From positions 2,229 to 66,228 of the forward strand of contig JAKAJU010000189.1 in the NCBI GenBank assembly GCA_021813655.1: DNA of 64,000 nt. Reading direction: 5' to 3'. This DNA is from Chloroflexota bacterium. Lineage in GTDB: Bacteria > Chloroflexota > Limnocylindria > Limnocylindrales > CSP1-4. Both the position numbers and the translations under genes were made by a program. This document shows positions 12,589-37,008 of the stretch, piece after piece (position 1 is the stretch's first letter; every line of letters begins with the position of its first letter). The notes below the pieces were generated by a model. It saw only the letters and a program-made list of their open reading frames with translations. It made no database searches and was not told where the DNA came from.

Positions 12589-14226
12589 TCACGGGCACGC
12601 GATGCGATAGACGCGGATCGCGTCCGAGCCGTCATCGGCGCGCACCGTCGCCTCCGGGACCAGGTCGAAGCAGCCGGCAGCCTCCCCACCCGCATCGAGG
12701 ATCGCCGGCCACTCCCCGTGCGCCGGCTCGACGGAGACGACGAGGAGCTTCGCCCCGAAGGTCCGCGCCAGGTCCAGGACGTCGGCGGGGGACTCCTGCG
12801 GCAGGGCGAGGGCTGGAACACGGGCCGTCTCGGCGAGCCAGATCGGGAAGTCGGCGATCACGGGCGCGTTCTCGGCGAGGGGGATGCCGGCGCCGGTGGT
12901 CGTGTCGAGGAGCGCCCGGTAGCGCCGTTCGGCCTCGGTCGAGACGGCCCCGATCCCGGTGATCGTCACGAAGAGCATCGGGATCGTGAAGAGGATGACC
13001 GCCGCGGGGGCGAGGAGTGCCGACCCGCGTCCCCACCCGCGTCGCGTCGCGACCCACGCCACGAGCATGTCGAGGCCGGCCATCGCGCTGACGACGAGGA
13101 GGACGTGGATCGGGCCGCCGGCGTGGAGGAACGTGCCCCAGAGCGTCGCGACGGGGAAGACGAGCGTGGTCGCGAGGAACGTGAGCGCCGCCCCGACCAG
13201 AAGCGGTCGGAGGACGACGGAGCGCAGGAACCAGGGAAGGGCGACGATCCCGATCGGGCCGACCGGGAGTGCCGGGATCAGCAGGACGGCGAGGGTGTTG
13301 TGCAGGAACGCGTCCACGCGGTCCGAGACGAGCTTCGCGGGACCCTGGGCGAGCCAGGCACCGAGCGTCGGCTTGTCCGCCCAGCCGAAGACGTCGTTGC
13401 CCGTGCGGAAGTAGGCGTTGGAGAGCGCCTGCCCGGGCAGCGGGGTGCCGAAGACGGCCCACTGCCGGATCGTCCACGGCACGTAGACGGCGATCGCCGC
13501 GAGGGCCGGGGTGGCGAGCAGGCGGACGTACGCGCGGATCCGCGCCCCCTCGCCCGCGACGGCTCGCGTGGCCCCCCACGCGACCCCGACCCACGCGAGC
13601 GCGTACCAGGCCGCCTCGTTCCGGGTCAGCGCGGCGAGGCCGAGGAGGAGTCCGATGCCCAGCAGGCGGGGATCGGCGAGGCGTGCGCCCCGTGGATCGC
13701 GGACGACGCGCTCCATGAGGATGCAGGCGGAGACCGCCGCGACCGTGAAGGGCGCCGTCGAGTCCGGGAGCGCGCCGTAGAGGACGAGCGGGCCGTAGAG
13801 CGCGGCGACGATGCCCGACCCGACGGCGAGCACGCGCCCGCGGAGCGGGGCGAGCCGCCGCTCCTCGGCGAGGTCAGCGGCAAGGCGCCATGCCAGGACC
13901 GGCACGATCGCGCTCACGAGGACGCCGGCGACCTGTGCGGACCGGAATGTCGTCCCGAGGACCGCGAGGAACGGGAGCGAGAGGAACGTGGGCAGCGGGA
14001 GCCAGATCTCGAACGCCGGACGCGGGAGCGTGAGCGGCGGCAGGTAGTACGACCAGAGTGCGTCGCTCACGAGCCCGCGCCCTTCGACGGCGTTGCGCGC
14101 GACGCCCCAGTAGTACGCGGTGTCCTCGGGGACCGCGAAGGGGACGGCCGCGGCGGCGACGATCCGGACCGCGACGGCGAGCCCGAAGATCGCCGCCGCT
14201 GAGACGATGGCCTCGCGTCGGGTCAT
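12589..14226 (-). CDS. GT39/ArnT-PMT-like polytopic glycosyltransferase (GT-C fold)
   Basis: 545-aa multi-TM protein with an N-terminal AVPEDTAYYWGVARNAVEGRGL loop that resembles the PMT/ArnT DE-motif loop. Confidence 0.7.
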   Translation of the reverse strand: MTRREAIVSAAAIFGLAVAVRIVAAAAVPFAVPEDTAYYWGVARNAVEGRGLVSDALWSYYLPPLTLPRPAFEIWLPLPTFLSLPFLAVLGTTFRSAQVAGVLVSAIVPVLAWRLAADLAEERRLAPLRGRVLAVGSGIVAALYGPLVLYGALPDSTAPFTVAAVSACILMERVVRDPRGARLADPRLLGIGLLLGLAALTRNEAAWYALAWVGVAWGATRAVAGEGARIRAYVRLLATPALAAIAVYVPWTIRQWAVFGTPLPGQALSNAYFRTGNDVFGWADKPTLGAWLAQGPAKLVSDRVDAFLHNTLAVLLIPALPVGPIGIVALPWFLRSVVLRPLLVGAALTFLATTLVFPVATLWGTFLHAGGPIHVLLVVSAMAGLDMLVAWVATRRGWGRGSALLAPAAVILFTIPMLFVTITGIGAVSTEAERRYRALLDTTTGAGIPLAENAPVIADFPIWLAETARVPALALPQESPADVLDLARTFGAKLLVVSVEPAHGEWPAILDAGGEAAGCFDLVPEATVRADDGSDAIRVYRIACP

Positions 14227-14233
14227 CGCCCCG

Positions 14234-15922
14234 TCATCCGCATCGCGTGTCGCTCGGGTCCAGGCAGACCGGATAGAGGGCGAGCCGCGGGATGCCCCCG
14301 TCGGTGGATGGCACCGCGAAGACGGGCGCCCCGATCCACGACGGCCTCGCCGCTCCCTCGAGGACGGGCACGAGGCTCGACGCGACGGCGTCGCGCTCGA
14401 GCACGAGCCAGCGGATCCCGTACGCGCGCGCCACGGCCTCGATCGTCCCGATCGGGTCGTTGGGCGTCACGACACCCGGTCGTCCGGTCCAGTAGTGCAT
14501 CCCCGCCGCGTCGATCGACAGCAGCCGGTCATCCGGCGCCACGCCGAGCCGGTCCATCTCGGACGCGAGCGCGATCCTCGGCTGGCGCTCCGCGTCCCAA
14601 GCCCGGAGCGTCCCCAGCCCGAACGGGATGGAGGTCAGGACGACGAAGCCGACCGTCACCCACACGAACACGCGCCCCGCCGACCCTTCGCGCCACGACG
14701 GCCGGCGCCGGGCCACGAACGCGACTGCAGCGAGCACGCCCTCGAGGCCGAGGATGTACGCGTAGGGAGCCAGCCCGATGGCGGAATGGATGAACGCGCC
14801 CCCGGGCACGTGGAGCGGATAGACGAGCGTCGCACCGGCGAACACGACAGCGGCGTAGACGAACCATGGCGCGAAGTCGATTGACCGCCGCCGTTCCCAT
14901 GCGCCGACGATCACCAGCGGCAGCAGGACGACCGAGCAGATGACAACCGCGAAGTTGGCGACCGCCGCGACGAGCCCGCCGAGGCGGCTCGCGAGGATCG
15001 GCCCCGGCCCCTGCGCGAGGAACCGTCCGAGCGTCGGGTCCACCGTGATCGAGTTCCACTCCGAGATCGTGCGGATCCACATCGCGGCCCCGTTCGAGCT
15101 GGTCGGGGAGATCGATCCGAACGTGGCCAGCTGGCGGAGCCACCACGGCCCCATGACCGCGAGGAACAGCGCGACGGCTCCGACGGCGGCGAGGACGCTG
15201 ACGGGCCGGCGGGTGGCGGGCGACCCCGAGGGTGCGGACGGCTCCCCGTGGGCGGCGGCGGCACCGCTCATCCGGTCGCGGCGGACGGCGAGCCACCAGC
15301 GGAGCCGGTCCCCGAGCCACACGAGCCCGATGGCGCCCATCAGGAGGACGCCGTCGTTCCGGGCGAGCGAGGCGAGGCCCGCGAGCAGCCCCGCGAGCGC
15401 GAACGACCACGCGCTCCCCTTGAGGCCGCGTGCGACGAGCCAGAGGGTCGCCGCGACGAGCGGCAGGAGCAGCGCGAAGTTCTCGGGCTGGCCCATGAAG
15501 ACCGTCCCGGCCGCCGGGATCGCGGCGAGGACGCCGGCGCCGGCCCCCACGATCGGCTGGGCGCCGGCATCCTTCGCGATCTTCCACGTGAGCGGCGCTG
15601 CCGTCGCGGAGATGAGGGCGAGCGGGAGCGCCGAGGCGAAGCCGGTGGGTCCGAGCAGGAGGATGAACGGGACCTGGATGAACGACGCGAGCGGGAGCCA
15701 GTGGGCGTTCGAGGGGACCGGGAGGACGGGTACGGCCGGGATCCGGTTCCCCACCTCGGCGAAGATCCAGACGAACGGGACGGTGAGGCCGTGGCCTCCC
15801 GCGATCGACCGCGCGACCTCGACGTAGTAGTAGGAATCGGGATACGCGGCGTCCGGGTAGATCGCGATGAGCGCGAGGCGGACGATGAGGGCCAGCCCGA
15901 ACAGGAGCAGGGGCGTGCGCAC
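14234..15922 (-). CDS. GT39/ArnT-PMT-like polytopic glycosyltransferase (paralogue)
   Basis: 562-aa multi-TM protein with IYPDAAYPDSYYYVEVARSIAGGHGL in its first loop, which fits PMT_2/ArnT-family architecture. Confidence 0.7.
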   Translation of the reverse strand: MRTPLLLFGLALIVRLALIAIYPDAAYPDSYYYVEVARSIAGGHGLTVPFVWIFAEVGNRIPAVPVLPVPSNAHWLPLASFIQVPFILLLGPTGFASALPLALISATAAPLTWKIAKDAGAQPIVGAGAGVLAAIPAAGTVFMGQPENFALLLPLVAATLWLVARGLKGSAWSFALAGLLAGLASLARNDGVLLMGAIGLVWLGDRLRWWLAVRRDRMSGAAAAHGEPSAPSGSPATRRPVSVLAAVGAVALFLAVMGPWWLRQLATFGSISPTSSNGAAMWIRTISEWNSITVDPTLGRFLAQGPGPILASRLGGLVAAVANFAVVICSVVLLPLVIVGAWERRRSIDFAPWFVYAAVVFAGATLVYPLHVPGGAFIHSAIGLAPYAYILGLEGVLAAVAFVARRRPSWREGSAGRVFVWVTVGFVVLTSIPFGLGTLRAWDAERQPRIALASEMDRLGVAPDDRLLSIDAAGMHYWTGRPGVVTPNDPIGTIEAVARAYGIRWLVLERDAVASSLVPVLEGAARPSWIGAPVFAVPSTDGGIPRLALYPVCLDPSDTRCG

Positions 15923-15944
15923 GGCCCGACTCTAGCATCGGGAG

Positions 15945-16874
15945 ATGCCCCGGCGGCCGGGTCACCCGGGGCGCGGACCGAGAGCGGTCGCGGCGGGGCC
16001 GTACGATGCGGGCGTGACGTTGACCGGGGCCGTCGGGCGATCGCCGCTCCTCCGTGCGCTGCGCGACGGCGCGATCCTGGTCGGTCTCCTCTTCGCGGCC
16101 TTCCTCTTCCTCGTCGTCGCTCCGAGGGCGCAGACCTTCGGGTTCGACGCGTACGCGTACTGGGCTGTCGATCCAGCCGAACCGTACGGACGGACCGCGG
16201 GGGCGCTCGGGGCCTTCACATACTCGCCGCCGATCGCGTGACCGTTCGGCTGGTTCAAGCTCGTCCCGTTCTCCACCTTCCTGGTGCTCTGGACCGCGCT
16301 CCAGGTGGGGACGACCTCCTGGCTGGGGGGCCGCTGGGCGGTCGCGCTGTTCGCGTTCCCGCCGGTCGCCCTCGAGATCCACCACGGGAACATCCACATC
16401 CTCCTCGCGGCGGCGATCGTCCTCGGGTTCCGTTGGCCGGCGACGTGGGCGTTCGTCCTCCTCACGAAGGTGACCCCGGGTGTCGGTCTCGTCTGGTTCG
16501 CCGTCCGGCGGGAGTGGCGGCGCCTCGCCATCGCGCTCGCGGTGACCGGAGCGATCGCCGGGGTCTCGCTCGTGCTCGAGCCGCAGGTCTGGCGGTCCTG
16601 GGTCGAGGACAGCCTCCTCGTCACGGCAGAGGGCTCGCCGCTGAACCAGTTCTCGCTGCCGATCCCGCTCGCGCTCCGCCTGCCCGCTGCCGCGATCCTC
16701 GTCGCATGGGGCGGCCTGACCGATCGGCCGTGGACCGTCCCCGCGGCGGCCACGCTCGCGCTCCCCGTCCTGTGGCCCACGGGATTCGCGGTCCTCGCCG
16801 CGCTCTGGCCGATCGCACAGCGGCGCCCGGGGCTCACGGACGACGCGATGCTCGGGCCGTCGCGAGCGAGCTGA
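15945..16874 (+). pseudogene. GT87/DUF2029 family mannosyltransferase-like gene interrupted by one in-frame TGA at 16239-16241
   Basis: ORFs 15945..16241 and 16284..16874 share a reading frame and are separated only by a TGA. The interrupted motif reads GFDAYAYWAVDPAEPYGRTAGALGAFTYSPPIA*PFGWFKLVPF, which matches the DUF2029 N-terminal signature also seen in the intact paralogue at 17725. Confidence 0.55.
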
Positions 16875-16945
16875 GGCGATCCCGGAGCGGTTCGAGGCGA
16901 TCCCAGTGCGGCCCGAGGCCCGGGACTCCGTCTAGACTCCACGCG

Positions 16946-17728
16946 ATGCCGCCTGCCTCGCTCGCGATCGTCCTGCCCGCGTACAACGAGGAGGCCCGCC
17001 TCGGGCCGGGCCTCGACGAGCTCTTCACGTTCATCGACGGAGACGCCGGCCGCGCGGCGCTCCCACCGGACGTGCGCGTCCTCGTTGTCGACGACGGGAG
17101 CACGGACGGGACGGCGGCGATCGTCCATCACCGTCCGGAAGCGGTCGCCCGCGCCGGTGACCGGCCCCGTCTCGCCGTGCTGAGCGTCCCCCACGGCGGC
17201 AAGGGATCGGCCGTCCGGGCCGGCATGCTCGCGTCGGACGCCGACCTCGTCGTCTTCGCCGACGCGGACATGGCGACGCCGCCGGACGAGCTCGGGAAGC
17301 TCGTCGCGGCGCTCGGCGATCGGGACGTCGCGCTCGGGAGCCGGATCCAGGCGGACGGCTCCGACATGCGCGCGAGCCAGCCGCTGTTCCGGCGGCTGCT
17401 CGGGAAGGCGTTCCACGCGTTCGCGTCGGTGTGGGTGGTCGGGCCGGTCCAGGACACCCAGTGCGGCTTCAAGGGATTCTCGCGCGACGCCGCGCACGAC
17501 CTGTTCGGCCTGCAGAGGGTCGGGAGCATCGTCTTCGACGTCGAGATCATCTACCTCGCGCGCCGGCGCGGGTACTCGATCGCGGTGGTCCCGATCCGGT
17601 GGGCGGACCGCCGGGGATCCCGGATGCATCCACGGCCGGGACTCGCGCTGCGCGTCGCGTGGGACCTCCTTCGGATCCCGCTGATCCACCGCCGCGACGC
17701 TCGTCCTCGGAGGAGGGCGGCGGGGTGA
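16946..17728 (+). CDS. GT2-family polyprenol-phosphate sugar synthase (Ppm1/DPM1-like)
   Basis: LAIVLPAYNEEARL...VLVVDDGSTDGT...ADADMATPPDEL...VQDTQCGFK are the GT-A DxD/QxxRW-like motifs typical of dolichyl/polyprenyl-phosphate mannose or glucose synthases. Confidence 0.8.
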   Translation: MPPASLAIVLPAYNEEARLGPGLDELFTFIDGDAGRAALPPDVRVLVVDDGSTDGTAAIVHHRPEAVARAGDRPRLAVLSVPHGGKGSAVRAGMLASDADLVVFADADMATPPDELGKLVAALGDRDVALGSRIQADGSDMRASQPLFRRLLGKAFHAFASVWVVGPVQDTQCGFKGFSRDAAHDLFGLQRVGSIVFDVEIIYLARRRGYSIAVVPIRWADRRGSRMHPRPGLALRVAWDLLRIPLIHRRDARPRRRAAG

Positions 17729-18861
17729 CCGAGCCGGCCGAGCCGCCCGTCGGCCGCGCCATCGCCGACTCCTCGCGCTCCGCGGCGTCTCCCCCGGAGC
17801 CCGCGCCGCCGTTGCTCGTCGCCGCGGCCGTCGTGGTCCCGATCCTCACGACGGGGCTCATCCTCCTCGTGGCGGGCGACACGCTCGGCTACGACTTCCG
17901 CGCCTACCTCGACGCCGCCCGACGCCTGATGGACGGAGGGGCGCTCTACGAGACGGGCGTGACGTCGTCCGGCGTCGTCGGCCTCTTCCAGTACCCACCG
18001 CCGGTCGCCGTGGCGCTCGTCCCCATCGCGCTCCTCCCGGAGACGCTGGCGCCCACCCTCGTGTGGCTCGGCCTCCTGCTCGCCGCCCTCGCGGGAGCCG
18101 TCGTCGCGCTCCCGGTCCGAGCGTGGGTCCGCTGGGCCGTGCTCCTGGTCGCGGGCCTCACATGGCCGGTCCTCTACGCAGTCAAGCTCGGGCAGGTCGG
18201 GCCGCTGCTGGTCCTCCTCTTCGCGCTCGCCTGGCGCTGGCTCGACCGGCCCGTCCCGCTGGGGCTGTCGATCGCCGCCGGAACGATCCTGAAGCTCCAG
18301 CCGGTCCTCCTGGTCCCGTGGGCCCTCGCGACGGGACGATGGCGGGCCGCCGCCGTCGCGACGGGAGCCATCCTCGTCATCTGCGCCGCGTCGGTGCCGA
18401 TCGTCGGGACCGGCGCCTGGCTCGATTGGATCGGCCTCATCCGCGGCGTGGGCGCGACGGTCGAGACCGCGCACGCTGTCAGCCCCGGGGCGATCGCGCT
18501 GGGGCTCGGCGCGGACTCCACGGTCGCCACGGCGATCCAGTGGGCGTTCGTCGCGGCCGTCGCGATCGTCACGATCCTCGCCTGGCTCCGACGGGACGCG
18601 GCGTCGAGCCTCGTCGTGACTGCCGTCGCGTCCCAGTGCGTCTCGCCGCTGGTCTGGGACCACTACGCCGTCGTCCTCCTCCTGCCGGTCGCTCTCGTCC
18701 TCGACCGCCTCGGCCCGCGCGCCTGGCCGATCGCGCTCCTTCCGATCGCCGGCTGGCTTCCGGCGCCCGTCTACCCGATCCTCTTCGCGGTCGGGCTCGC
18801 GGCCGCCTGGGGCGCCGGCCGACCGCGCGGCGCGATCTCCCTGCGTACGCTTGCCGCATGA
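17725..18861 (+). CDS. GT87/DUF2029 family membrane glycosyltransferase
   Basis: A GTG start overlaps the GT2 stop (GTGA) and follows a GGAGGAGGG SD. The N-terminal motif GYDFRAYLDAARRLMDGGALYE...GLFQYPPPVAVALVPIALLP is the DUF2029 signature. Confidence 0.7.
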   Translation: MTEPAEPPVGRAIADSSRSAASPPEPAPPLLVAAAVVVPILTTGLILLVAGDTLGYDFRAYLDAARRLMDGGALYETGVTSSGVVGLFQYPPPVAVALVPIALLPETLAPTLVWLGLLLAALAGAVVALPVRAWVRWAVLLVAGLTWPVLYAVKLGQVGPLLVLLFALAWRWLDRPVPLGLSIAAGTILKLQPVLLVPWALATGRWRAAAVATGAILVICAASVPIVGTGAWLDWIGLIRGVGATVETAHAVSPGAIALGLGADSTVATAIQWAFVAAVAIVTILAWLRRDAASSLVVTAVASQCVSPLVWDHYAVVLLLPVALVLDRLGPRAWPIALLPIAGWLPAPVYPILFAVGLAAAWGAGRPRGAISLRTLAA

Positions 18862-20102
18862 GGAGCGCCCGGCCCCAGGCCCTGTCGGTCCCGTCGACGC
18901 CGGCCGTCGCGTCGGCTCTCGTCGTCTGGATCCTCGCGGCCATCACGTATCTCGCGGCGAGCTGGGTCTTCGCGCCCGGCGGCAAGCTCTTCGATGCGGG
19001 CCGCCCGGACTTCTTCTGGCTCGCCGACGCGTTCCTCCACGGCAGGACGTGGCTGACCCACTCGCTCGGCGCGTGGGACACGGTCGTCATCGACGGCCGG
19101 GCCTACGTCCCGTTCGCCCCGGGCCCGGCGTTCGTCCTCATGCCGCTCGTGGCCGTCGCAGGGCTCGCGACCTCTGTGGCGTGGGAGCCCGTCGTCAACG
19201 CCGTGCTCTCCGGTGCGGGGGTGGCGCTCTGCTGGTCGCTCGCCCGGCGTCTCGGCGTCAGCCGCACCTCGGACCGCGTCTGGGTGGTCGTCCTCTTCGC
19301 GTTCAGCACCGTCACGTGGTGGGTGACGTCGCGAGGCGGCGTCTGGCACACCGCCCAGCTCGTCGCCTCGATCGCGACGTTCCTCGGCCTGATGGAAGCG
19401 TTCGGGCGACGGCGCCCGCTGGTGCTCGGGCTCCTCTCCGGCGCCGGCTTCCTCGCGCGCGCCCCTCTCGCGGCGGCGCTCCCGTTCTGGGCGTGGGCGG
19501 TCATGCCCCGCCACGGCGACCGCGGGTGGGAGGGGGGCCGGCACCCATCGGTCGTCCGCCGGTGGATCGTCCTCGCCGCCGGCTTCGCCCCCGCGTTCGT
19601 CTTCGCGCTCTGGTACAACGCGACGCGCTTCGGGTCGCCGTTCGAATCGGGCTACGGGCTCGCCGGGCTACCCGACTGGCTGGCCGCCCAGCGTGCCCAG
19701 GGCCTCTTCGCGCTCGTCCACGTCCCGATGAACATCGACTACCTGCTCCTCAAGCTGCCGGCGTTCATCGCGACGTTCCCGTTCATCAAGCCCGACTGGC
19801 TCGGCATGTCCGTGCTCTTCACGAGCCCGGGTCTCCTGCTCGCGATCCGCGCGGACTGGCGTGACCGGACGTCCTGGGCGCTGCTCGGGGCGGCGCTCCT
19901 CGTCCTCGTCCCGACCCTCCTGTACTACGGCGGGGGCTGGCTGCAGTTCGGGTACCGCTACTTCCTCGACTCGATCCCGTTCGTGATCGCGCTGGTCTCG
20001 CTCGCCGCAGCCCGCGTCCGCGTGGGGTGGGTCTGGCGGATCCTCATCCTGTTCGGGGTGGCGGTGAACGTCGCGAGCGTCTACTGGGTCTACCACTCGT
20101 AG
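18858..20102 (+). CDS. Polytopic membrane protein, putative GT-C glycosyltransferase (family unassigned)
   Basis: The ATG overlaps the previous stop (ATGA). The protein is multi-TM. It is a paralogue of the gene at 46821..48035 (shared ...RFGSPFE.GY.L... and ...QFGYR.FLD..P... segments). Confidence 0.6.
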   Translation: MRSARPQALSVPSTPAVASALVVWILAAITYLAASWVFAPGGKLFDAGRPDFFWLADAFLHGRTWLTHSLGAWDTVVIDGRAYVPFAPGPAFVLMPLVAVAGLATSVAWEPVVNAVLSGAGVALCWSLARRLGVSRTSDRVWVVVLFAFSTVTWWVTSRGGVWHTAQLVASIATFLGLMEAFGRRRPLVLGLLSGAGFLARAPLAAALPFWAWAVMPRHGDRGWEGGRHPSVVRRWIVLAAGFAPAFVFALWYNATRFGSPFESGYGLAGLPDWLAAQRAQGLFALVHVPMNIDYLLLKLPAFIATFPFIKPDWLGMSVLFTSPGLLLAIRADWRDRTSWALLGAALLVLVPTLLYYGGGWLQFGYRYFLDSIPFVIALVSLAAARVRVGWVWRILILFGVAVNVASVYWVYHS

Positions 20103-20113
20103 CGGAGGGGATC

Positions 20114-24359: not shown

Positions 24360-24362
24360 GCT

Positions 24363-25565: not shown

Positions 25566-25614
25566 CGGATCGTCGGGCGGCCGAGCGGCGCGCCCGCCCA
25601 TGTAGCATCCTCTC

Positions 25615-27198: not shown

Positions 27199-27259
27199 GG
27201 ACCGTCGGCCGGACCTTCGAGGGGTACCGCATGCATCGCAGGTTGGTACGCTCGCTCAC

Positions 27260-28459
27260 ATGAGCGAACCGGACCTCGACGTCGTCGTCCTCGGAGGAGC
27301 CGGGCACGTCGGCTTGCCGTTGAGTCTCGCCTTGGCGGCCAGCGGCCTCCGTGTCGGCATCTACGACACGAATGCCGCCACGCTCGCCCTGGTCTCCGAG
27401 GCGCGGATGCCCTTCCGCGAGAACGGCGCGGAGGAGCTTCTGCGCGACGTCCTCCCCACGGGCAGGCTCGTGTTGTCCGCAGACGCCGCCACCATCCGGC
27501 GCGCGGAGGCGCTCGTCATCGTCATCGGGACCCCCGTGGACGAGTTCCTCGGGCCCTCCATGACGCTCTTCGAGCGGACGGTCGAGCAGATCGCAGTCCA
27601 CGTGCAGGACGGCGCACTCGTCGTGCTCCGGAGCACCGTCTACCCGGGTACGACCGAGTACGTCGCCAACGCGCTCGCCGTCCACCATCGCCGCGTCCAG
27701 GTCGCCTTCTGCCCCGAGCGCGTCGCGGAGGGGCACGCTCTCGAGGAGTTCCGGACCCTGCCGCAGATCATCGGCGCGGACGACCCCGCCGTATCAGACC
27801 GCGCCGCGGCGCTCTTCGCCCGGCTCGGCGGCGAGATCGTCCGAACCACCTCCCGCGAGGCGGAGCTCGCCAAGCTCTTCACGAACACGTGGCGATACAT
27901 GAAGTTCGCGATCGCGAACCAGTTCCTCATGGTCGCGGACCAGGCCGGCCTCGACTACGCGCACATCCTCGAAGCGATCCGCCACGACTACCCGCGCGCC
28001 GCGGACCTCCCCGGCCCGGGCTTCGCCGCCGGGCCGTGCCTCTTCAAGGACACGATGCAACTCGCGGCCTTCACGAGCGACCACTTCCCGATGGGTCAGG
28101 CGGCGATGCAGGTGAACGAGGGCCTGCCCGCCTACATCGTGAGCGCGCTCGAGCGGCGCCACGGGACACTGCGGGGCAGGACGGTCGGGATCCTCGGCAT
28201 GGCGTTCAAGGCCGAGTCGGACGACAATCGGGCGTCGCTCAGCTACAAGCTTCGCAAGTTGCTCGCCTGGGCCGGGGCGCGCGTCCTGTGCACGGACCCG
28301 TACGTGCCCGACCCGCGCCTCGTCCCGCTCGAGGTGGTCCTCGAGGAGTCCGACACGATCATCCTCGGCGTCCCGCATCGCGCGTACCGAGGCCTCGAGA
28401 TCGGCGACCGCGACGTCGTGGACATCTGGGACGCCTTCGGCCGCGGGATCACGCTGTAG
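27260..28459 (+). CDS. UDP-glucose/GDP-mannose dehydrogenase family protein
   Basis: N-terminal Rossmann motif VVVLGGAGHVGLPLSLALAASG, a catalytic Cys in GPGFAAGPCLFKDT, and a C-terminal UDP-binding domain. Confidence 0.85.
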   Translation: MSEPDLDVVVLGGAGHVGLPLSLALAASGLRVGIYDTNAATLALVSEARMPFRENGAEELLRDVLPTGRLVLSADAATIRRAEALVIVIGTPVDEFLGPSMTLFERTVEQIAVHVQDGALVVLRSTVYPGTTEYVANALAVHHRRVQVAFCPERVAEGHALEEFRTLPQIIGADDPAVSDRAAALFARLGGEIVRTTSREAELAKLFTNTWRYMKFAIANQFLMVADQAGLDYAHILEAIRHDYPRAADLPGPGFAAGPCLFKDTMQLAAFTSDHFPMGQAAMQVNEGLPAYIVSALERRHGTLRGRTVGILGMAFKAESDDNRASLSYKLRKLLAWAGARVLCTDPYVPDPRLVPLEVVLEESDTIILGVPHRAYRGLEIGDRDVVDIWDAFGRGITL

Positions 28460-29285
28460 GGTCTCCCGGGGGAGCGTGCGGCGCTTCAGGCGCGGCATCT
28501 GACGGCGCTGGTGAACGGGTCGCCGGAGCGCTCGACCGGCCCGGCCATCGCCACCCGAGAGATGAGGCCGACCGGCGCCGTGTGCGGCCGAACCACGCGA
28601 CGATCGGCACGAGCAGGAGCGGCACGGTGACGAGCGCGTGAGCCGGCCCGAGCGAGGAATTCCGTATCGCCACGACGTAGTCCGCCCAAAGCGCGCCGAA
28701 CGATGCGGAGGCGAGGATCAGCACCGCGAGCGCGATCCACCACCCGCGGGTCCGCACGCCCACCAGCGCGAACGGTGCGAGCGATGGCTTGAGGAGGACG
28801 AAGACGCTCGGCCATCCCCAGACGACGCCGGCCGCGAGCGCGGCCGCGATCCACATGTTCGTGTTCCCGTAGAGGAGCGGCGATATCGTAGGCGGGTACG
28901 CGATCCCGGCGGCCATCAGCGGCCATGTCCACGGAGCCGGTCGGAGTTGCCAGAGCGACCAGGTGAACACGCCGATCGGGACGGCCCACCAGAGCGGCCA
29001 GGGCAGGAAGAGGAAGGGGACGAACAGAAAGAGCGCGTTGGGCGGGTAGAGAACGTCGACGTTCGATTCGACGATGTAGGGCCCGGCCAGCTGGCGAGGC
29101 AGGTAGAACTCGCCGGTGTCCAACCACCGCTCGGCGATCGACCGGAAGTACGCGAGGTCCAACCCGAGCGCGTGCTGGCCGTCGACGTATCTCCAGAGCC
29201 AGACGGATTCGGCGATGCCGACGACGACGAACAGGCCCGTCGTGGTGAGGATCGCGACACGGGCGACGCGGGGGAGACCTGCCAC
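28449..29285 (-). CDS. Short GT87/DUF2029-like membrane protein
   Basis: The ...LAYFRSIAERWLDTGEFYLPR...VDVLYPPNALFLFVPFLFLPWP motif resembles the DUF2029 N-terminal region. The C-terminal 50 aa is low-complexity, so the true extent is uncertain. Confidence 0.45.
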   Translation of the reverse strand: MAGLPRVARVAILTTTGLFVVVGIAESVWLWRYVDGQHALGLDLAYFRSIAERWLDTGEFYLPRQLAGPYIVESNVDVLYPPNALFLFVPFLFLPWPLWWAVPIGVFTWSLWQLRPAPWTWPLMAAGIAYPPTISPLLYGNTNMWIAAALAAGVVWGWPSVFVLLKPSLAPFALVGVRTRGWWIALAVLILASASFGALWADYVVAIRNSSLGPAHALVTVPLLLVPIVAWFGRTRRRSASSLGWRWPGRSSAPATRSPAPSDAAPEAPHAPPGDPTA

Positions 29286-29420
29286 GACCGCAGTCTACGG
29301 ACCGCCCTGCGCGCGCGATGGCCGCACGAGCGCGCTGACCCCCGGGAGCGGTTCGTCCCGGCTGGCCGCGCCCGTCTGCTAGAGTCGGGCGCGATCCGTT
29401 CGCAGGAGGCGCGTGGTCGG

Positions 29421-30446
29421 TTGGTGAGAATCCTTGTCACCGGCGCCGCCGGATTCATCAACGGATATCTCGTTCCCGAGCTGCTCGGGGCGGGGCACGA
29501 GGTCATCGGCCTCGACGACTTCAGCAAGTACGGCCCCGCCCGTCGCAGCTACGACGACCACCCCGCGTACACCTTCGTCGAGGGGGACGCGAAGGACGTC
29601 GCGCTCCTGCGCGAGCTGATCCGCGGCTGCGACCAGGTCGTGGCGGCTGCCGCGATGATCGGCGGCATCAGCTACTTCCACCAGTTCGCGTACGACCTCA
29701 TCGCCGAGAACGAGCGGATCCTCGCCGCGACGTTCGATGCCGCGATCGACGCGCACCTCGACGGCAGCCTCCGGCGGATCGTCGTCCTGAGCTCGTCGAT
29801 GGTCTACGAGTCGGCGACCGTCTTCCCGACGCCGGAGGGGGCGCAGCTCTCGTCGCCGCCGCCGGTCTCGACGTACGGCTTCCAGAAGCTGGCCTCGGAG
29901 TACTTCGCGCGAGGAGCATGGGAGCAGTACCGGCTGCCGTACACGATCCTGCGGCCGTTCAACTGCGTCGGGATCGGCGAGCGGCGTGCCGTCCGCGACA
30001 GCACCGTCATGAGCGGGAACGTGAAGCTCGCGCTCTCGCACGTCGTCCCGGACCTCGCGCTCAAGGTCCTCCGCGGACAGGATCCGCTTCACATCCTCGG
30101 CGACGGGACGCAGGTCCGCTGCTATACGTACGGCGGCGACCTGGCCCGCGGGATCCGGCTCGCGATGGAGTCGGAGGCCGCCGTCAACGAGGACTTCAAC
30201 CTCTCGACGCCCGTGAGCACGACGGTGCTCGACCTCGCGCGCCTCATCTGGCGGACGATCCACGGGCCGGATCGCCGGTTCTCATGGGTCTCCGATCCGC
30301 CGTTCGACCACGACGTCCAGCACCGGGTCCCCGACGTGCGAAAGGCGCGCGAGATCCTCGGCTTCACGGCTGACACGACGCTGGCCGAGATGCTGGACGA
30401 GGTCGTCCCGTGGATCCGCGCCGAGGATGCAGCCGGGGCCATCTGA
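29421..30446 (+). CDS. NAD-dependent epimerase/dehydratase (extended SDR)
   Basis: N-terminal motif ILVTGAAGFINGYLVPELL and the catalytic YxxxK (STYGFQK). A TTG/GTG start lies downstream of an AGGAGG SD. Confidence 0.8.
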   Translation: MVRILVTGAAGFINGYLVPELLGAGHEVIGLDDFSKYGPARRSYDDHPAYTFVEGDAKDVALLRELIRGCDQVVAAAAMIGGISYFHQFAYDLIAENERILAATFDAAIDAHLDGSLRRIVVLSSSMVYESATVFPTPEGAQLSSPPPVSTYGFQKLASEYFARGAWEQYRLPYTILRPFNCVGIGERRAVRDSTVMSGNVKLALSHVVPDLALKVLRGQDPLHILGDGTQVRCYTYGGDLARGIRLAMESEAAVNEDFNLSTPVSTTVLDLARLIWRTIHGPDRRFSWVSDPPFDHDVQHRVPDVRKAREILGFTADTTLAEMLDEVVPWIRAEDAAGAI

Positions 30447-31102
30447 TGACCGACCTTGGCCGTGTCTACCGCGCGCGATTCGACGACGCCGACCATCGCG
30501 CGAAGATGGCGCTGTGGCGTGAGATCGTGCCGTCGATCGCACGGATCGTCCCGATCGACGGCCCGGTGCTCGACCTCGCCTGCGATCGCGGCTACTTCAT
30601 CGCGCACGTGCGCGCTCAGGACCTGTGGGCGTGCGACGTCCGCGACGTCGCCGCCGATCTCCCGGCGGGCGTGCGGTTCGTCCGCGCATCCGGGCTCGCG
30701 CTCGACGACGCCGTTCCCGCGGGCCACTTCGCGACCGTCTTCGCGAGCAACTACCTCGAGCACCTCGCCTCGTCGGACGAGGTGCTCGACCAGATGCGCG
30801 CGGTCGAGCGCGTCCTCCGGCCCGGCGGCCGGTTCGTCGTCCTCCAGCCGAACATCCGGCTCGTCGGGGGTGCCTACTGGGACTTCATCGACCATCACGT
30901 CCCCCTGACGGAGCGCAGTCTCCAGGAGGCGGGCTCCCTCGCCGGGCTGCCGACCGAGCGCACCATCGTCCGCTACCTGCCCTACTCGACGAAGGGACGC
31001 CTGCCCGCCGACCCGCGCCTCGTCCGCGCGTACCTGCGATTCCCACCCGCGTGGCGCATCCTCGGGCGGCAGACGCTCTGGGTGGGACGGAAGCCCGCGT
31101 GA
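30446..31102 (+). CDS. Class I SAM-dependent methyltransferase
   Basis: VLDLACDRGYF (motif I) ... LRPGGRFVV. The ATG overlaps the upstream stop (TGATG). Confidence 0.7.
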   Translation: MTDLGRVYRARFDDADHRAKMALWREIVPSIARIVPIDGPVLDLACDRGYFIAHVRAQDLWACDVRDVAADLPAGVRFVRASGLALDDAVPAGHFATVFASNYLEHLASSDEVLDQMRAVERVLRPGGRFVVLQPNIRLVGGAYWDFIDHHVPLTERSLQEAGSLAGLPTERTIVRYLPYSTKGRLPADPRLVRAYLRFPPAWRILGRQTLWVGRKPA

Positions 31103-31866
31103 CGGACGCGCGCGTGGCGACGGCCGGGCGGCCCGATCGGCCGGATCTCACGATCGTCATGCCGGTCTACGAGGAGGGCGCCGCCGTCGTGCCGGTGCTG
31201 CGCGCGCTGGAGGCCGCGCTCTCCACCCCGCACGAAACGCTCGTCGTGTACGACTTCGACGCGGACACCACCGTGCCTCCGGTCCGCGCACTCGCCGCGG
31301 AGCTTCCGGCGGTGCGGCTCGTGCGCAACGACCTGGGGCGCGGCGTGCTCAACGCGATGAAGGCCGGCTTCGCAGCGGCTCGCGGGACATGGATCCTCGT
31401 CACGATGGCTGACGGATCGGACGACCCCGCGGTCGTGGAGGCGATGGTCGCGCTCGCCCGGGATGGCGCGGACCTCGTCGCCGCCAGCCGGTACATGCAT
31501 GGCGGGCATCAGTACGGCGGCCCGCTCGTCAAGCGGACGCTCTCGCGCGCCGCCGGCCTCTCGCTCCACCGGCTCGCGGGTGTCCCCGTGCACGACGCGA
31601 CGAACAACTTCAAGCTCTACAGTCGTGAGTTCCTCGAGTCCACGACGATCGAGAGCACGGCCGGCTTCGAGCTCGCCACCGAGCTGACCGTGAAGGCAGC
31701 GCTCGCGCGACGCCCGATGGCGGAGGTCCCGGCGACCTGGCGCGACCGCACCGCCGGGCAGAGCCGGTTCCGCCTCGGCGCATGGCTCCCGCACTACCTG
31801 CGCTGGTATCGGGCCGCGTTCATCGGGAGGGCGCGGGCGGCCATTCGGATGCCCAGGTCGGGCTGA
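31099..31866 (+). CDS. GT2-family polyprenol-phosphate sugar synthase-like glycosyltransferase (second copy)
   Basis: LTIVMPVYEEGAAV...ETLVVYDFDADTT...ILVTMADGSDDP. A GTG start overlaps the methyltransferase stop (GTGA). Confidence 0.8.
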   Translation: MTDARVATAGRPDRPDLTIVMPVYEEGAAVVPVLRALEAALSTPHETLVVYDFDADTTVPPVRALAAELPAVRLVRNDLGRGVLNAMKAGFAAARGTWILVTMADGSDDPAVVEAMVALARDGADLVAASRYMHGGHQYGGPLVKRTLSRAAGLSLHRLAGVPVHDATNNFKLYSREFLESTTIESTAGFELATELTVKAALARRPMAEVPATWRDRTAGQSRFRLGAWLPHYLRWYRAAFIGRARAAIRMPRSG

Positions 31867-31882
31867 GTCGCCACCTGCGCGG

Positions 31883-33187
31883 TCAGGCCGAGGGTATGGC
31901 GGGCGTCGTCGTCGCCTCGTCGGACCGGTCAGGCGTCCCGCGGACGAGGATCGCGAGCACGTAGACGGCGACGCACGTGATCGCGAGCGAGCCGACGATC
32001 CCGACCGGACCTCCGAGCGGGACCAGCGAGCCGGGCCCGCCCCCGGGCGGAGCCGCGGCCAGGTAGTTCGCCGACGTCGCGACGACCAGCACGACCCACG
32101 CCACCAGGATCCGCCGGTCGGCGAGGAGGAGCGCGAGGAAGACGACGGCCGGATAGGCGTACCGCTCGTGCATCGCAGTGAGGAGGCAGTAGGCCACGAG
32201 GACGGATGCCGCGAGCGCGAGGTAGAGCGCGTTCCCGGTCGGCCTTCGCCGGAGCGCGACGAAGACGAGGGCGAGGCCGACGGCGGCCGCCGCGTATCCG
32301 AGGAGCCGCGGAGTGAGCGGCCCGACGATCGCGCCGGTGTCCGCGAGGAGCCCGTCGCCTGCTGTGGCGAGCGACTGGAGGATCCACCAGGGGTTCCAGG
32401 CGCGCAGCGAGAGGATCGCGAACGTCTCGCCCTGGTACGCAAACGCCGACCGCAGGTAGGCCACGGGGCCACCCGCAGCAAGGAAGGGGAGCCAGAGCAG
32501 GACGAGGGTCGCCGCGGTCGCGGCCACCGGCAGCGCGGCTCGGCGAACGCCGATGCGCGCGACGGCGTACGCGGCGAGGGGGACGACGAATGGAATCGCC
32601 TGAGGCTTCGTTCCCAGCGCGAGCCCGAGCATCACGCCGGCGAGGGCCCAGCGGCCCCGGAGCGCGAGGACCGCGGCGAGGAGGCCGAAGAGCGTGTAGA
32701 TCGACTCGGACTGCCCCCAGAAGGCGCTGAGGTACCACGTGACCGGCACGAAGGACAGCGCGAGCGCGGACGCGACGGCGATGCGCGGCCGGTCCTTCAG
32801 GGCGTACGCGATGACGAGCGCGATCGCGATGTCCGCGGTCGACGCGGGGATCTTGAGCCAGATCCGGACGGTCGGGTCGGCTGCGTCGGTCGCGGTCTGG
32901 AATGCCGCCTGCAGGTGTCCGATCGCCCAGAAGAGGTAGGCCATGACCGGCCCGAATGAGAGGCCGTGCTCGTAGATGCGATCGAGGGGAACGCCCATTG
33001 CCAGCAGATGCGTCCACAGGGCGAAGACGTCCAGATCGCCCGGCAGGCCCTCCGTCGGCAGGAGCAGGAGGCGGAGGATCGCTGCGCCGGCGAGCCCGAG
33101 GGCGAGCGTGGCGATGAGAGCGGGGGTCCAGGTGCCGCCTCCGGCGGGGGCGACCCCGGCCGTGGATCGCCCGGCCCCGACGCTCAT
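31883..33187 (-). CDS. GT-C membrane glycosyltransferase, GT22 (Alg9/PIG-B)-like
   Basis: Multi-TM protein with an HERYAYP motif near the C-terminus that resembles the H(K/Q)ExRF signature of GT22 mannosyltransferases. The ATG at 33187 lies 4 nt after the PIG-L stop. Confidence 0.55.
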   Translation of the reverse strand: MSVGAGRSTAGVAPAGGGTWTPALIATLALGLAGAAILRLLLLPTEGLPGDLDVFALWTHLLAMGVPLDRIYEHGLSFGPVMAYLFWAIGHLQAAFQTATDAADPTVRIWLKIPASTADIAIALVIAYALKDRPRIAVASALALSFVPVTWYLSAFWGQSESIYTLFGLLAAVLALRGRWALAGVMLGLALGTKPQAIPFVVPLAAYAVARIGVRRAALPVAATAATLVLLWLPFLAAGGPVAYLRSAFAYQGETFAILSLRAWNPWWILQSLATAGDGLLADTGAIVGPLTPRLLGYAAAAVGLALVFVALRRRPTGNALYLALAASVLVAYCLLTAMHERYAYPAVVFLALLLADRRILVAWVVLVVATSANYLAAAPPGGGPGSLVPLGGPVGIVGSLAITCVAVYVLAILVRGTPDRSDEATTTPAIPSA

Positions 33188-33191
33188 GGCG

Positions 33192-34271
33192 TCAGAGGAG
33201 GCTCGTCGCCCAGTACCGTTCCGCGCCGCCCGGCACCGCCCCCAGCCGGCCGATCCGCGCCGCGTGCGCGCGTACTGCATCGGCCATCGGGTCCACGCCG
33301 CCGAAGAGCCGGTCCATCTGGCTCTCGTAGAGCGCGATCCCCCGGATCTTCCGCTCTACGACCTCCGAGATCGCCGCGTACTCGGGCGTGAGCGCCACGT
33401 CCGACGCGATGCCGTCCAGCGCCCCAGCGGGCAGGTCTTCCAGACGTGTGAACTCACCCCAGTACGCGTACGGGAAGTCCTCATAGAAGGCCACGCTCCC
33501 GGCCCACCGAGGACCTGGCATCACCCAGTCCTCGCGCTCGGTCAGGAGCGCGACTCCAACCTGCCGCATGAGCTGGTGGTCGACATGGCCGCCGATCCCG
33601 AGCGGCAGGTACACCTTCTGGGGTTCGAGTCGTGCGATCTCTGTCCGGAGGATCTCGATCGGCGCGCGGTCGTCGGGCCGCGGGGCGCCCAGGAGCTGGT
33701 CGTCGCCCTCGTAGCCCCGGAAGACCGCGTCGGGGAGGTCGAGGAAGATGACGGAGGCCTCGGCGAACGCCGCGTACCGCTCGTCCTCGAGCCGGCGCTC
33801 GGCCATGACGTCGCCGGCGATCCCCGCGTCGACCAGCGCGTCGGTCAGCACCGCGCCCTGCTGGGCGACGTCGTCCGGAGCCGTCCCCGAAGCCTGCGAC
33901 CCGGCGTGGATGTCGGCGCGCCGATACCACGATGCGCGCTGCCAGAACCGACGTGCGCTCGCATCGGCCGCCGTCTGGGTGGCGGCGAGGCGATCGTCTG
34001 CGGCGAGCCACGGAGCGAGCGCGCCGTCGGTGGACGACGGGTAGTCGTTGCCCACGTTGGCGCGGTTGAACGCCTCGGTGTTGGGCCAGACCGCCTTGTT
34101 CCCGAAGCCGAGAGCCTCGCGCTGGTACCCGGTGAGCGTGCCCACTGCGCCCATCCCGGAGAAGACCGTGACGATCGCAACGTTCTGTCCGAGCTCCCGC
34201 AGACCGGCGATGAGCCCGCCGCAGGAGAGGGCGACGTCGTCGGGGTGGGGCGCGACGAAGACGTGGGTCAT
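33192..34271 (-). CDS. PIG-L/LmbE-family N-acetylglucosaminyl deacetylase
   Basis: N-terminal VFVAPHPDDVALSCGG (the HPDD zinc-binding motif of the PIG-L/MshB/LmbE family). Confidence 0.8.
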   Translation of the reverse strand: MTHVFVAPHPDDVALSCGGLIAGLRELGQNVAIVTVFSGMGAVGTLTGYQREALGFGNKAVWPNTEAFNRANVGNDYPSSTDGALAPWLAADDRLAATQTAADASARRFWQRASWYRRADIHAGSQASGTAPDDVAQQGAVLTDALVDAGIAGDVMAERRLEDERYAAFAEASVIFLDLPDAVFRGYEGDDQLLGAPRPDDRAPIEILRTEIARLEPQKVYLPLGIGGHVDHQLMRQVGVALLTEREDWVMPGPRWAGSVAFYEDFPYAYWGEFTRLEDLPAGALDGIASDVALTPEYAAISEVVERKIRGIALYESQMDRLFGGVDPMADAVRAHAARIGRLGAVPGGAERYWATSLL

Positions 34272-37005: not shown

Positions 37006-37008
37006 TCT

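Follow-up and report, generated by a model that had tools for sequence, protein, structure and literature searches.

A conserved, modular gene cluster of Candidatus Limnocylindria rich in GT-C-type glycosyltransferases: a candidate locus for the assembly of a cell-envelope glycoconjugate

What kind of glycan, and on what acceptor, would be assembled by a compact set of bacterial genes that combines probable polyprenyl-phosphate sugar synthases with numerous membrane glycosyltransferases of the GT-C fold and a PIG-L-family de-N-acetylase? This question is raised by a gene cluster at positions 12589-34271 of a 64,000-nucleotide stretch of DNA (the window, to which all coordinates refer) from a Chloroflexota bacterium of the class Limnocylindria (contig JAKAJU010000189.1, positions 2,229 to 66,228, assembly GCA_021813655.1). 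An earlier reading of this DNA, made from the letters without database searches (hereinafter, the sequence-only reading), took the cluster for a toolkit that assembles phosphatidylinositol mannosides (PIM) and lipomannan (LM) or glycosylphosphatidylinositol (GPI) anchors. On the evidence of sequence comparison, the locus appears to resemble both pathways in logic and to be a member of neither. The account that we tentatively favour, giving it somewhat less than an even chance, is that this is a conserved, modular locus of Candidatus Limnocylindria for the biosynthesis of a cell-envelope glycoconjugate from polyprenyl-phosphate sugars by many GT-C enzymes, along the lines set out below.

At a GC content of about 72%, the window yields raw lists of open reading frames (ORFs) that are crowded with shadow ORFs. 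When genes were called from the GC content of third codon positions (GC3), 18 were obtained, here denoted g1 to g17 and g12b, that fill 12589-34271 exactly, in agreement with the number given by the sequence-only reading. This call had initially produced 17 genes; the remaining one, g12b (28449-29285, minus strand, 278 amino acids), was detected by frame-specific GC3 analysis between g12 and the domain of g13, and is present also in an independent gene call of the identical contig at ENA. The alternative gene model, in which the epimerase is encoded by a single 602-residue ORF (28638-30446), is ruled out by the GC3 frame signal and by the ENA call, where g12b is accompanied by an epimerase of about 340 residues. 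The earlier notion that most genes are chained by ATGA or GTGA overlaps does not hold: such 4-bp overlaps are found at only 5 of the 17 junctions (g4/g5, g5/g6, g7/g8, g8/g9 and g14/g15), along with a 1-bp overlap at g13/g14. Those at g7/g8 and g8/g9 depend on upstream starts; the GC3 call preferred later starts, although the ENA call agrees with the overlap for g9. Judging from these overlapping stop and start codons, g4/g5/g6, g7/g8/g9 and g13/g14/g15 are predicted to be translationally coupled. Protein families were assigned by Pfam and NCBIfam scans, with the membrane proteins rescanned against Pfam at E<=10; in addition, we employed hhalign comparison of orthologue alignments, BLASTP, phmmer searches against the PDB, and AlphaFold2 models compared with known structures using Foldseek.

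The GT-C candidates fall into several groups, and in all of them except g3 an acidic residue closely follows the first transmembrane segment (TM1). Two proteins, g2 (14234-15922, minus; E 1.6e-8, 35.4 bits) and g8 (21451-23148, plus; E 1.6e-6, 28.9 bits), exceed the gathering score of 26.1 for Pfam PMT_2 (GT39/GT83-like), and thus are the two GT39/ArnT-PMT-like enzymes previously proposed. The 545-residue polytopic membrane protein g1 (12589-14226, minus) has no Pfam or NCBIfam match but is a further PMT_2-like paralogue, as indicated by its alignment with the g2 family (hhalign 99.9%, E 7e-33; BLASTP 28% identity over 525 residues), and carries an ED motif after TM1. The proposed trio of GT87 proteins also was recovered, in the form of one full-length protein, g5, and two short derivatives, g3 and g12b, identified by Pfam and by hhalign, respectively. 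In g5 (17725-18861, plus, joined to g4 by a GTGA overlap), the match to Pfam GT87 (E 2e-24) covers model positions 1-237, and the first loop harbors the motif G-Y-D-F-R-A-Y, with an aspartate and a tyrosine at +4 as in D58/Y62 of PimE, followed farther along by a lysine motif, I-K-L-Q-P (K-x-x-P). The functional residues of PimE are D58, Y62 and K195 (PMC12041525), and all three have counterparts in g5 and g12b, whereas g3 does not possess the set. The g12b protein aligns with residues 51-243 of g5 (hhalign 97.8%, E 1e-12) and retains both the first-loop aspartate motif, G-x-D...Y...R-x-L-x-G, and the lysine motif, LLKPS; it has 432 homologues, mostly of 240-290 residues, and among the 120 of these that were listed, PF09594 is assigned in precomputed annotation to 3.

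The smallest of these proteins, g3 (16284-16874, plus, 196 residues), matches only model positions 46-213 of GT87 (E 6e-12) and, in profile comparison, aligns with residues 136-260 of g5. It is not a truncated pseudogene, given that it belongs to a conserved family of about 200 residues (median length 202) with conserved starts and, commonly, 2-4 tandem copies in the relatives described below. The type of about 200 residues, to which g3 belongs, is devoid of the region of the first-loop catalytic aspartate and keeps the lysine motif, whereas the type of about 250 residues keeps both. Across the window and its relatives, the shortened GT87-like proteins comprise a size series of about 200, 250, 303, 319 and 378 residues, often with 2-4 copies in tandem and in variable positions and orientations (for example, L039:11574-13868, L034:15895-18498, L033:12684-13595 and L012:14287-15246, where L numbers denote related loci). 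These proteins may represent GT-C enzymes of minimal size or in split form, or else non-catalytic partners.

Two further membrane proteins represent GT-C families for which there is no Pfam model. The AlphaFold2 model of g6 (18858-20102, plus, with an ATGA overlap to g5; pLDDT 80, pTM 0.85) has AglB, ArnT, ALG12, PglB and AftB as its top Foldseek matches, followed by AftD, with no significant neighbours other than GT-C proteins; of its 1661 homologues, none of the 120 listed has a Pfam domain, and all those that are named are called 'hypothetical protein'. The model of the 527-residue g11 (25615-27198, plus; pLDDT 91, pTM 0.92) similarly has significant structural neighbours only among GT-C proteins, namely, STT3 (STT3B), DPY19, ArnT, AglB, PglB and AftA, and its C-terminal globular domain matches that of AfAglB-S2 in the structure search. 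Members of this family, too, are without Pfam domains and bear no annotation beyond 'hypothetical protein'. Despite the STT3/AglB-like fold, we do not accept g11 as a true oligosaccharyltransferase (OST), because the WWDYG motif is absent: neither WWD nor WW[DE][YFW]G was found in any of 35 family members, and the family profile has no sequence-level match to any OST in the PDB. Profile searches of the g3, g6 and g11 families against PDB sequences likewise retrieved nothing. The finding of GT-C folds only, and of no transporter fold, in the structure searches rules out the assignment of g6 or g11 to polymerases or flippases of the Wzy/Wzx type; placement of the membrane proteins in such families, like the scattering of the genes in relatives, was what the sequence-only reading had regarded as capable of refuting it, and the genes proved to be syntenic in relatives. 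A GT22 (Alg9/PIG-B)-like protein that had been thought to be present is unsupported, as neither g16 nor any other membrane protein matches Glyco_transf_22 even at E<=10. With about 10 transmembrane segments, g16 (31883-33187, minus) is a generic GT-C candidate that shows only sub-threshold matches to ALG3, PMT_2 and GT87 near 1e-3 and weak profile links to g8 (57%) and g5 (27%). The membrane proteins without a Pfam assignment are three (g1, g6 and g11) rather than the four previously counted in an inventory that adds up to 19 genes instead of 18. Together with the distal genes considered below, the window harbors up to 13 GT-C candidates in 37 kb of what is a small genome.

The donors for these enzymes probably come from two soluble GT2 glycosyltransferases, g4 (16946-17728, plus; Pfam Glycos_transf_2 8e-23) and g15 (31099-31866, plus; 4.5e-20), each of about 255 residues, without transmembrane segments and only 27% identical to one another. 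Among characterized proteins, their GT-A domains are most similar to polyprenyl-phosphate glycosyltransferases in both NCBIfam and the PDB, which agrees with their designation as Ppm1/DPM1-like synthases in the sequence-only reading. The best NCBIfam matches are dolichyl-phosphate hexose transferase, ArnC and AglJ for g4 and dolichyl-phosphate hexose transferase, PgfS, AglJ and PpgS for g15, all below the equivalog cutoffs, and the best PDB matches of g4 are the Pyrococcus furiosus dolichyl-phosphate mannose synthase (5mlz, 9e-10) and ArnC. Thus, g4 and g15 probably are polyprenyl-phosphate sugar synthases of the DPM1/ArnC/PpgS kind.

Three other soluble enzymes, g10, g17 and g9, are central to the interpretation. 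The GT4 retaining-type glycosyltransferase g10 (24363-25565, plus; Pfam Glycos_transf_1 5e-43; 400 residues here and 388 in the public gene call) had been placed in the PimA/PIG-A class; the GT4 assignment stands, whereas the PimA class is not singled out, because among solved structures BshA (5e-31), the HepE-like Alr3699 and MshA (2e-23) rank above PimB' (6e-19) and PimA (9e-14). Its best NCBIfam match is TIGR03088, a GT4 family of exopolysaccharide (EPS) loci (174 bits, below cutoff). The PIG-L/LmbE-family de-N-acetylase g17 (33192-34271, minus), predicted as such from the start, scores 56.3 bits against a Pfam PIG-L cutoff of 28.2 (E 6e-15), and its catalytic motifs, APHPDD (7-12) and HVDH (229-232), are intact and invariant in 19 orthologues, with a mean column identity of 78%; the two motifs are separated by a highly conserved insertion (residues ~50-220, about 170 in all) that has no Pfam match, and the best NCBIfam match of the protein is BshB1 (1.4e-8, below cutoff). 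The FemAB-like GNAT protein g9 (23145-24359, plus; Pfam Acetyltransf_6 1.6e-30, Mig-14 9e-9) has no relative in the PDB by phmmer and weakly resembles the FemAB protein of TIGR03088-type EPS loci; a literature search on FemAB-like enzymes in EPS loci found nothing.

The Pfam and NCBIfam assignments of g9, of the nucleotide-sugar module g12-g14 and of the oxidoreductase g7 coincide with the earlier ones. The nucleoside diphosphate (NDP)-sugar 6-dehydrogenase g12 (27260-28459, plus; NCBIfam TIGR03026, 265 bits against a cutoff of 190) has as its closest PDB relatives the UDP-ManNAc dehydrogenase 4r16 (2e-41), CalS8 and Cap5O, that is, the group of UDP-ManNAc/NDP-HexNAc 6-dehydrogenases. It is followed by g13 (29424-30446, plus, about 340 residues; Pfam Epimerase 7e-39), a nucleotide-sugar 4-epimerase or decarboxylase-type enzyme of the short-chain dehydrogenase/reductase (SDR) class, whose PDB neighbours are UDP-hexose and UDP-GlcA 4-epimerases, MoeE5 and UXS, and by the class I S-adenosylmethionine-dependent methyltransferase g14 (30446-31102, plus; Methyltransf_23 4e-10). 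The FAD-dependent oxidoreductase g7 (20114-21454, plus) is of the amine-oxidase/phytoene-desaturase type (Amino_oxidase 1e-25; NCBIfam NF005560, 'hypothetical protein', 381 bits against a cutoff of 252).

A scan of species-representative genomes with g10 detected 407 related stretches, of which the best 80 (loci L001-L080; g10 65-89% identical) were analysed by mapping the window proteins onto them and calling the genes there. All 80 are from metagenome-assembled genomes, nearly all labelled Chloroflexota, Chloroflexia or Candidatus Limnocylindria/Limnocylindrales. An actinobacterial source, which a GC content of 72% might suggest, is rejected on this ground. The Limnocylindria have been described from genomes only (about 2.4 Mbp, 69% GC), and the envelope is not covered in that description (PMC10608941). 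Dozens of these loci share the genes of the cluster and their order, a degree of clustering that far exceeds what chance would produce. The canonical order is g4 GT2 - g5 GT87 - g6 GT-C - [fusion of a major facilitator superfamily (MFS) protein with a spermidine-synthase-like domain] - g9 - g10 - [0-4 short GT87s of the g3 type] - g11 - dehydrogenase - epimerase - [methyltransferase] - g15 GT2 - [0-3 short GT87s of the g12b type] - g16 (minus) - g17 PIG-L (minus). The g9 gene adjoins g10 in 76 of the 80 loci; where enough upstream sequence is available (47 loci), g9 is found in 45, g6 in 39 and g4 in 36, and where enough downstream sequence is available (54 loci), g11 is found in 39. The methyltransferase g14 (14 of the 80 loci), g7 (only 4) and g8 (among relatives, only in L003) are accessory genes, the latter two rare; in the window, g7 and g8 stand where other loci have the MFS fusion. 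L003 agrees with the window in every gene but one, g12b, which is missing there between g12 and g13. The fusion protein itself, of about 766 residues, lies between g6 and g9 in 25 loci (e.g., L042:2214-4514 and L057:2035-4155), and related SpeE-like proteins of 706 and 276 residues are found in relatives (e.g., L011:12871-13701).

Along with this conservation, the loci vary in a distinctive manner. In the minimal loci L049 and L076, the set is reduced to GT2, GT87, GNAT, GT4 and PIG-L, with g1 and g2 also present in L076; L066 and L080 are similar but have no clear g17 orthologue. Most locus variants end on the right with g17, which persists also in loci without g15 and g16. Among the closest relatives, L001, L002 and L004 have, in the position that follows the GT4 gene, a protein that combines Wzy_C (the O-antigen ligase/polymerase family) with tetratricopeptide repeats (TPR), and L004 and L061 encode a WbaP-type (Bac_transf) priming transferase. 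The cassettes of other relatives include a DegT aminotransferase, the GDP-mannose dehydratase Gmd, or additional PMT_2 or GT87 proteins; LPG_synthase_TM (MprF-type) proteins are present in 6 relatives and a Sulfatase-family protein in four, and MFS proteins are encoded within the locus or at its borders. Thus, a recurrent core (GT2, GT87, GNAT, GT4, PIG-L) brackets an exchangeable middle, and the g10-g17 stretch behaves in a manner that is best likened to an exchangeable serotype cassette. The replacement of the middle by Wzy_C and the priming transferase of L004 point to a variable surface-glycan locus rather than to a fixed PIM/GPI pathway.

The gene content, the family and fold assignments, the catalytic motifs, the synteny and the modularity of the locus are established and constitute the basis for a proposed mechanism, in which the substrates, the sequence of steps, the topology, the flippase and the kind of final acceptor are our inferences. 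Under this scheme, the GT4 enzyme g10 would add an N-acetylhexosamine (HexNAc) to a membrane-bound acceptor at the cytoplasmic face; g17 would strip the N-acetyl group, and g9 would re-acylate or aminoacylate the free amine. The g12-g14 module would supply a modified, probably uronic, nucleotide sugar, and g4 and g15 would load sugars onto polyprenyl phosphate. On the outer face, once flipping has occurred, up to ten GT-C-type proteins, namely, the PMT_2-like g1, g2 and g8, the GT87-like g3, g5 and g12b, the representatives of new families g6 and g11, and g16, would elongate the glycan and add its decorations, probably with a contribution from the distal genes x1-x3. The stepwise extracytoplasmic assembly envisaged in the sequence-only reading is thus retained, considering that the GT2 proteins are closest to polyprenyl-phosphate glycosyltransferases and that the models of g6 and g11 have GT-C folds.

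As to the product, we lean towards a lipid-anchored glycan, that is, a glycolipid or lipoglycan comparable in logic to the anchors of PIM/LM, GPI and lipoteichoic acid. The minimal loci would suffice for a glycolipid but not for a polymer linked to polyprenyl pyrophosphate. The characterized substrates of PIG-L/LmbE enzymes are GlcNAc residues on a small or lipid aglycone (GlcNAc-phosphatidylinositol, GlcNAc-inositol and GlcNAc-malate), and such GlcNAc-aglycones are made by GT4 enzymes of the BshA, MshA and PIG-A types, BshA and MshA being the closest solved relatives of g10. The MFS proteins at or inside the locus are suggestive given that the glycolipid flippase LtaA is an MFS protein. Finally, Wzy_C includes ligases that join polymers to a glycolipid core and shares its slot with g11, so g11 may have a comparable role and attach a further glycan en bloc. 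A more specific version of this proposal, which we regard as improbable though worth stating, is a lipoglycan on an N-acylated glucosamine-type anchor made by GT4, PIG-L and the FemAB-like GNAT in succession and extended wholly outside the membrane by an expanded, lineage-specific set of GT-C enzymes. The latter would include the smallest GT-C proteins known (GT87 derivatives of 200-300 residues, possibly split or heteromeric) and an AglB-like protein without WWDYG that ligates a variable cassette onto the anchor. Such a route would amount to a bacterial analogue of the logic of GPI or lipid A.

Several observations weigh against the favoured account. Our search of the literature on envelope glycans of Limnocylindria and Chloroflexota found nothing, with no product chemistry for the class; the window genes scanned include no gene for a lipid acceptor (phosphatidylinositol synthase or inositol synthesis), and the window encodes no recognizable flippase (GtrA or Wzx). 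All GT4 and GT2 matches are below equivalog cutoffs, so no sugar or acceptor specificity can be assigned, and g3, being devoid of the catalytic loop, may be no enzyme at all. Moreover, the fold of g11 resembles that of an OST, and the Wzy_C proteins and priming transferases of the relatives mentioned above are such that a polysaccharide linked to polyprenyl pyrophosphate, or a protein glycan, fits them at least as well.

The first of these alternatives, a wall-linked or secreted heteropolysaccharide built on a polyprenyl-pyrophosphate carrier, appears to us unlikely but deserves serious consideration. Here, a priming transferase, encoded elsewhere or, in some relatives, within the locus, would initiate synthesis; the GT4, PIG-L and GNAT proteins would build or modify the repeat or linkage unit, the GT-C enzymes would add side chains from polyprenyl-phosphate sugars, in the manner of streptococcal rhamnose polysaccharides or mycobacterial arabinogalactan, and g11 or Wzy_C would polymerize or ligate the product. 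This scenario readily accommodates not only Wzy_C with TPR in the slot of g11 and the priming transferases of L004 and L061 but also the variability of cassettes with DegT and Gmd modules, which is typical of O-antigen or capsular polysaccharide loci, and the weak affinities of g10 and g9 to EPS-locus proteins. There is precedent both in the three-component systems (PMC11127046) and in the galactosamine (GalN) decoration of arabinogalactan, which proceeds from a GT2 through deacetylation to a GT-C (PMC9671496). Nevertheless, the locus in the window and most of the relatives' loci lack a priming transferase, Wzx, an ABC exporter and an LCP ligase, and the minimal loci have a single cytoplasmic glycosyltransferase. 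In addition, PIG-L-family enzymes, to our knowledge, do not act on sugars embedded in polymers. A system for glycosylation of an S-layer protein, pilin or large adhesin, akin to archaeal N-glycosylation by the Agl proteins, seems to us less probable still: the GT2s would play the parts of AglJ/AglD, the dehydrogenase of AglM, the methyltransferase of AglP, the PMT_2/GT-C proteins of AglS or Pmt, and g11 that of an AglB-like OST. The similarity of the g11 fold to STT3B, AglB and PglB and of its C-terminal domain to AfAglB-S2 speaks for this scenario, as do the presence of AglJ, Halobacterial dolichyl-phosphate hexose transferase and AglM among the best NCBIfam matches of the GT2s and the dehydrogenase, the relationship of PMT_2 proteins to protein O-mannosyltransferases, and potential targets in the same window, a Tad operon (2422-8036) and a 1234-residue surface protein (55643-59347). 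However, WWDYG, the motif that defines OSTs, is missing from g11 and its family; the minimal loci have no g11, and close relatives have Wzy_C in its place; and the loci of relatives have no linked target protein. Furthermore, we know of no Agl or Pgl pathway that features a core of GT4, PIG-L and GNAT.

The BshA- and MshA-like character of g10, along with the BshB1 match of g17, could also be taken to mean that unrelated pathways are juxtaposed here, with the GT4, PIG-L and GNAT proteins making a soluble glucosamine metabolite (a thiol like bacillithiol or mycothiol) and the GT-C and GT2 proteins serving elsewhere, the more so as a GNAT, MshD, completes the synthesis of mycothiol. We consider this very improbable because nearly all loci have the g9-g10 pair embedded among membrane glycosyltransferase genes, a GTGA overlap joins g9 to g8 in the window, and g17 is paired with the GT-C gene g16; furthermore, all matches to thiol families are far below the cutoffs, and there is no cysteine ligase (MshC or BshC) among the window genes scanned.

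Returning to the favoured account, a membrane-anchored glycoconjugate assembled by GT-C enzymes, it is instructive to see how far the likeness to known systems extends. With PIM, LM and lipoarabinomannan (LAM) biosynthesis (PimA/PimB' GT4, PatA, Ppm1, PimE), the locus shares a cytoplasmic GT4 step, soluble DPM1-like GT2s, GT87 proteins with the D...Y loop and the lysine motif, and the use of many GT-C enzymes outside the membrane. By contrast, the phylum is different (Chloroflexota), g10 is not specifically PimA-like, nothing in PIM synthesis corresponds to the pairing of PIG-L with a GNAT, the locus has an exchangeable middle part, and g5 does not detect PimE directly, with none found in a phmmer search of the PDB; the two belong to the same Pfam family, GT87, which does not imply orthology. 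Pfam scans of the 18 cluster genes and about 20 neighbours detected no PatA-type acyltransferase and no phosphatidylinositol or inositol genes. With the GPI pathway (PIG-A, PIG-L, PIG-W, DPM1, PIG-M/V/B), the common features are the order of events, from GT4-mediated HexNAc transfer through PIG-L and acylation to GT-C enzymes fed by a DPM1-like GT2, as well as a PIG-L protein with intact motifs and PIG-V-like proteins in the distal part of the window (x1 and x3) and in relatives' loci. The differences are that the acylating enzyme would be a FemAB-like GNAT and that the relation to PIG-V is transitive only; the Pfam/NCBIfam scans found no GT50 (PIG-M), GT22 (PIG-B), PIG-W, ethanolamine-phosphate transferase or transamidase in the window. 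For these reasons, we abandon the identification of the cluster as a PIM/lipomannan or GPI toolkit.

The three-component systems (GtrB/GtrA/Gtr*, ArnC/ArnD/ArnT, PpgS/Rv3779, GacI/GacL) likewise combine a GT2 polyprenyl-phosphate sugar synthase with a GT-C enzyme, and the g15/g17/g16 arrangement mirrors the logic of ArnC-ArnD-ArnT and of PpgS-(unknown deacetylase)-Rv3779. However, the deacetylase here is of the PIG-L type rather than the ArnD type, and there are 9-10 GT-C genes instead of one; the cluster has no flippase of the GtrA, SMR or MATE families and no intergenic gap large enough for one. The pathway of 4-amino-4-deoxy-L-arabinose (Arn) has in common with the locus only the dehydrogenase, SDR, GT2 and PMT_2 components, with no aminotransferase (ArnB), formyltransferase (ArnA) or polysaccharide-deacetylase (ArnD) domains in the cluster by Pfam. 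OSTs of the GT66 family share with g11 the GT-C fold and the C-terminal globular domain and differ in that g11 is short (527 residues) and without WWDYG; archaeal Agl systems have DPM1-like GT2s and GT-C transferases in common with the locus. Finally, the hallmarks of a Wzx/Wzy locus (a priming phosphoglycosyltransferase, Wzx and Wzy) are all absent from the window.

The combination of GT-C enzymes with polyprenyl-phosphate sugars is a known principle, and extracytoplasmic assembly of this kind in bacteria is, as far as we know, best characterized in the Corynebacteriales (LM/LAM and arabinogalactan); unusual in the present locus are the GT-C density, the GT-C families without a Pfam model (g6/x2 and g11), the size series of shortened GT87 proteins, and g11 as an OST-like enzyme without the OST signature. 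The presence of a conserved yet hypervariable locus in an abundant, uncultured class of soil and freshwater Chloroflexota suggests that this strategy could be more widespread. A PIG-L-type deacetylase that works together with pathways of lipid-linked sugars may be represented by g17; in the mycobacterial GT2-deacetylation-GT-C route of GalN decoration, no deacetylase has yet been assigned to the corresponding step (PMC9671496). Given the cassette-like middle, the locus may determine interactions with phages and predators. All these implications are predictions.

The genes near 45.6-49.4 kb that the sequence-only reading tentatively connected with the cluster merit separate discussion. There are three: x1 (45654-46793, plus), x2 (46821-48035, minus) and x3 (48089-49390, plus), of which x2, not included in the earlier pair, is a paralogue of g6 (BLASTP 33% identity, E 2.5e-42) and so belongs to the same GT-C fold family, with a weak NCBIfam match to the LA_3751/LA_3752 putative glycosyltransferase (1.3e-10, below cutoff). 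The paralogues x1 and x3 (BLASTP 36% identity, E 5e-23) have no direct Pfam match and are PIG-V (GT76)-like GT-C candidates by transitive homology only, through a protein of a related locus (L019:8026-9087) that passes the Pfam Mannosyl_trans2 (PIG-V) threshold (26.8 bits against 22.4); hhalign aligns this protein with x1 at 98.8% (E 7e-17) and with x3 at 78.9%, with a tblastn match at 48377-48586. In about seven relatives, the locus itself includes genes similar to x1 and x3. Given the paralogy of x2 with g6, the PIG-V homology and these occurrences, it is reasonable to assign the distal genes to the same system as the cluster, as had been surmised.

On the left, the cluster is bordered by minus-strand genes for a histidine kinase, a LuxR-type response regulator and another histidine kinase (9406-12489, by Pfam), all three of which are syntenic in L002, L065, L066 and L076; L080 has a kinase next to g1, and L055 only the regulator. 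On the right, Pfam identifies a DUF5317-MFS fusion (35026-37005) and a membrane HD-domain (HD_5) protein (37009-38430), both on the minus strand (35026-38430), and the right-border gene d2 lies beside g17 in 15 of the 54 loci with enough downstream sequence. Conceivably, the genes at the recurrent right border and those at the left border serve the system in regulation or transport.

Elsewhere in the window, a Tad/Flp pilus operon (2422-8036, minus), located 4.5 kb upstream of the locus, encodes two TadB/C-like T2SSF proteins, a CpaF-type ATPase, a response-regulator/ParA-like CpaE protein and RcpC/CpaB; the Tad pilin could be a target of glycosylation. The 1234-residue predicted surface protein (55643-59347, minus), with PKD, Big_9, cadherin-like and CarboxypepD_reg domains, is possibly a cell-surface glycoprotein. 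In the plus-strand ORF at 44211-45554, ribosomal protein L9 domains are confined to the last ~150 residues, and the upstream part is overlapped by a minus-strand ORF (44265-44990, 242 residues, GC3 0.90) that probably is the real gene there; rplI and dnaB (42749-44098, minus) are on opposite strands. The local GC content drops to 0.648 at 38001-40000, compared with about 0.72 elsewhere, a dip that coincides with the 3' end of, and the region downstream from, the gene for a 1085-residue AAA/TPR/BTAD (SARP-like) regulator (38945-42202, minus).

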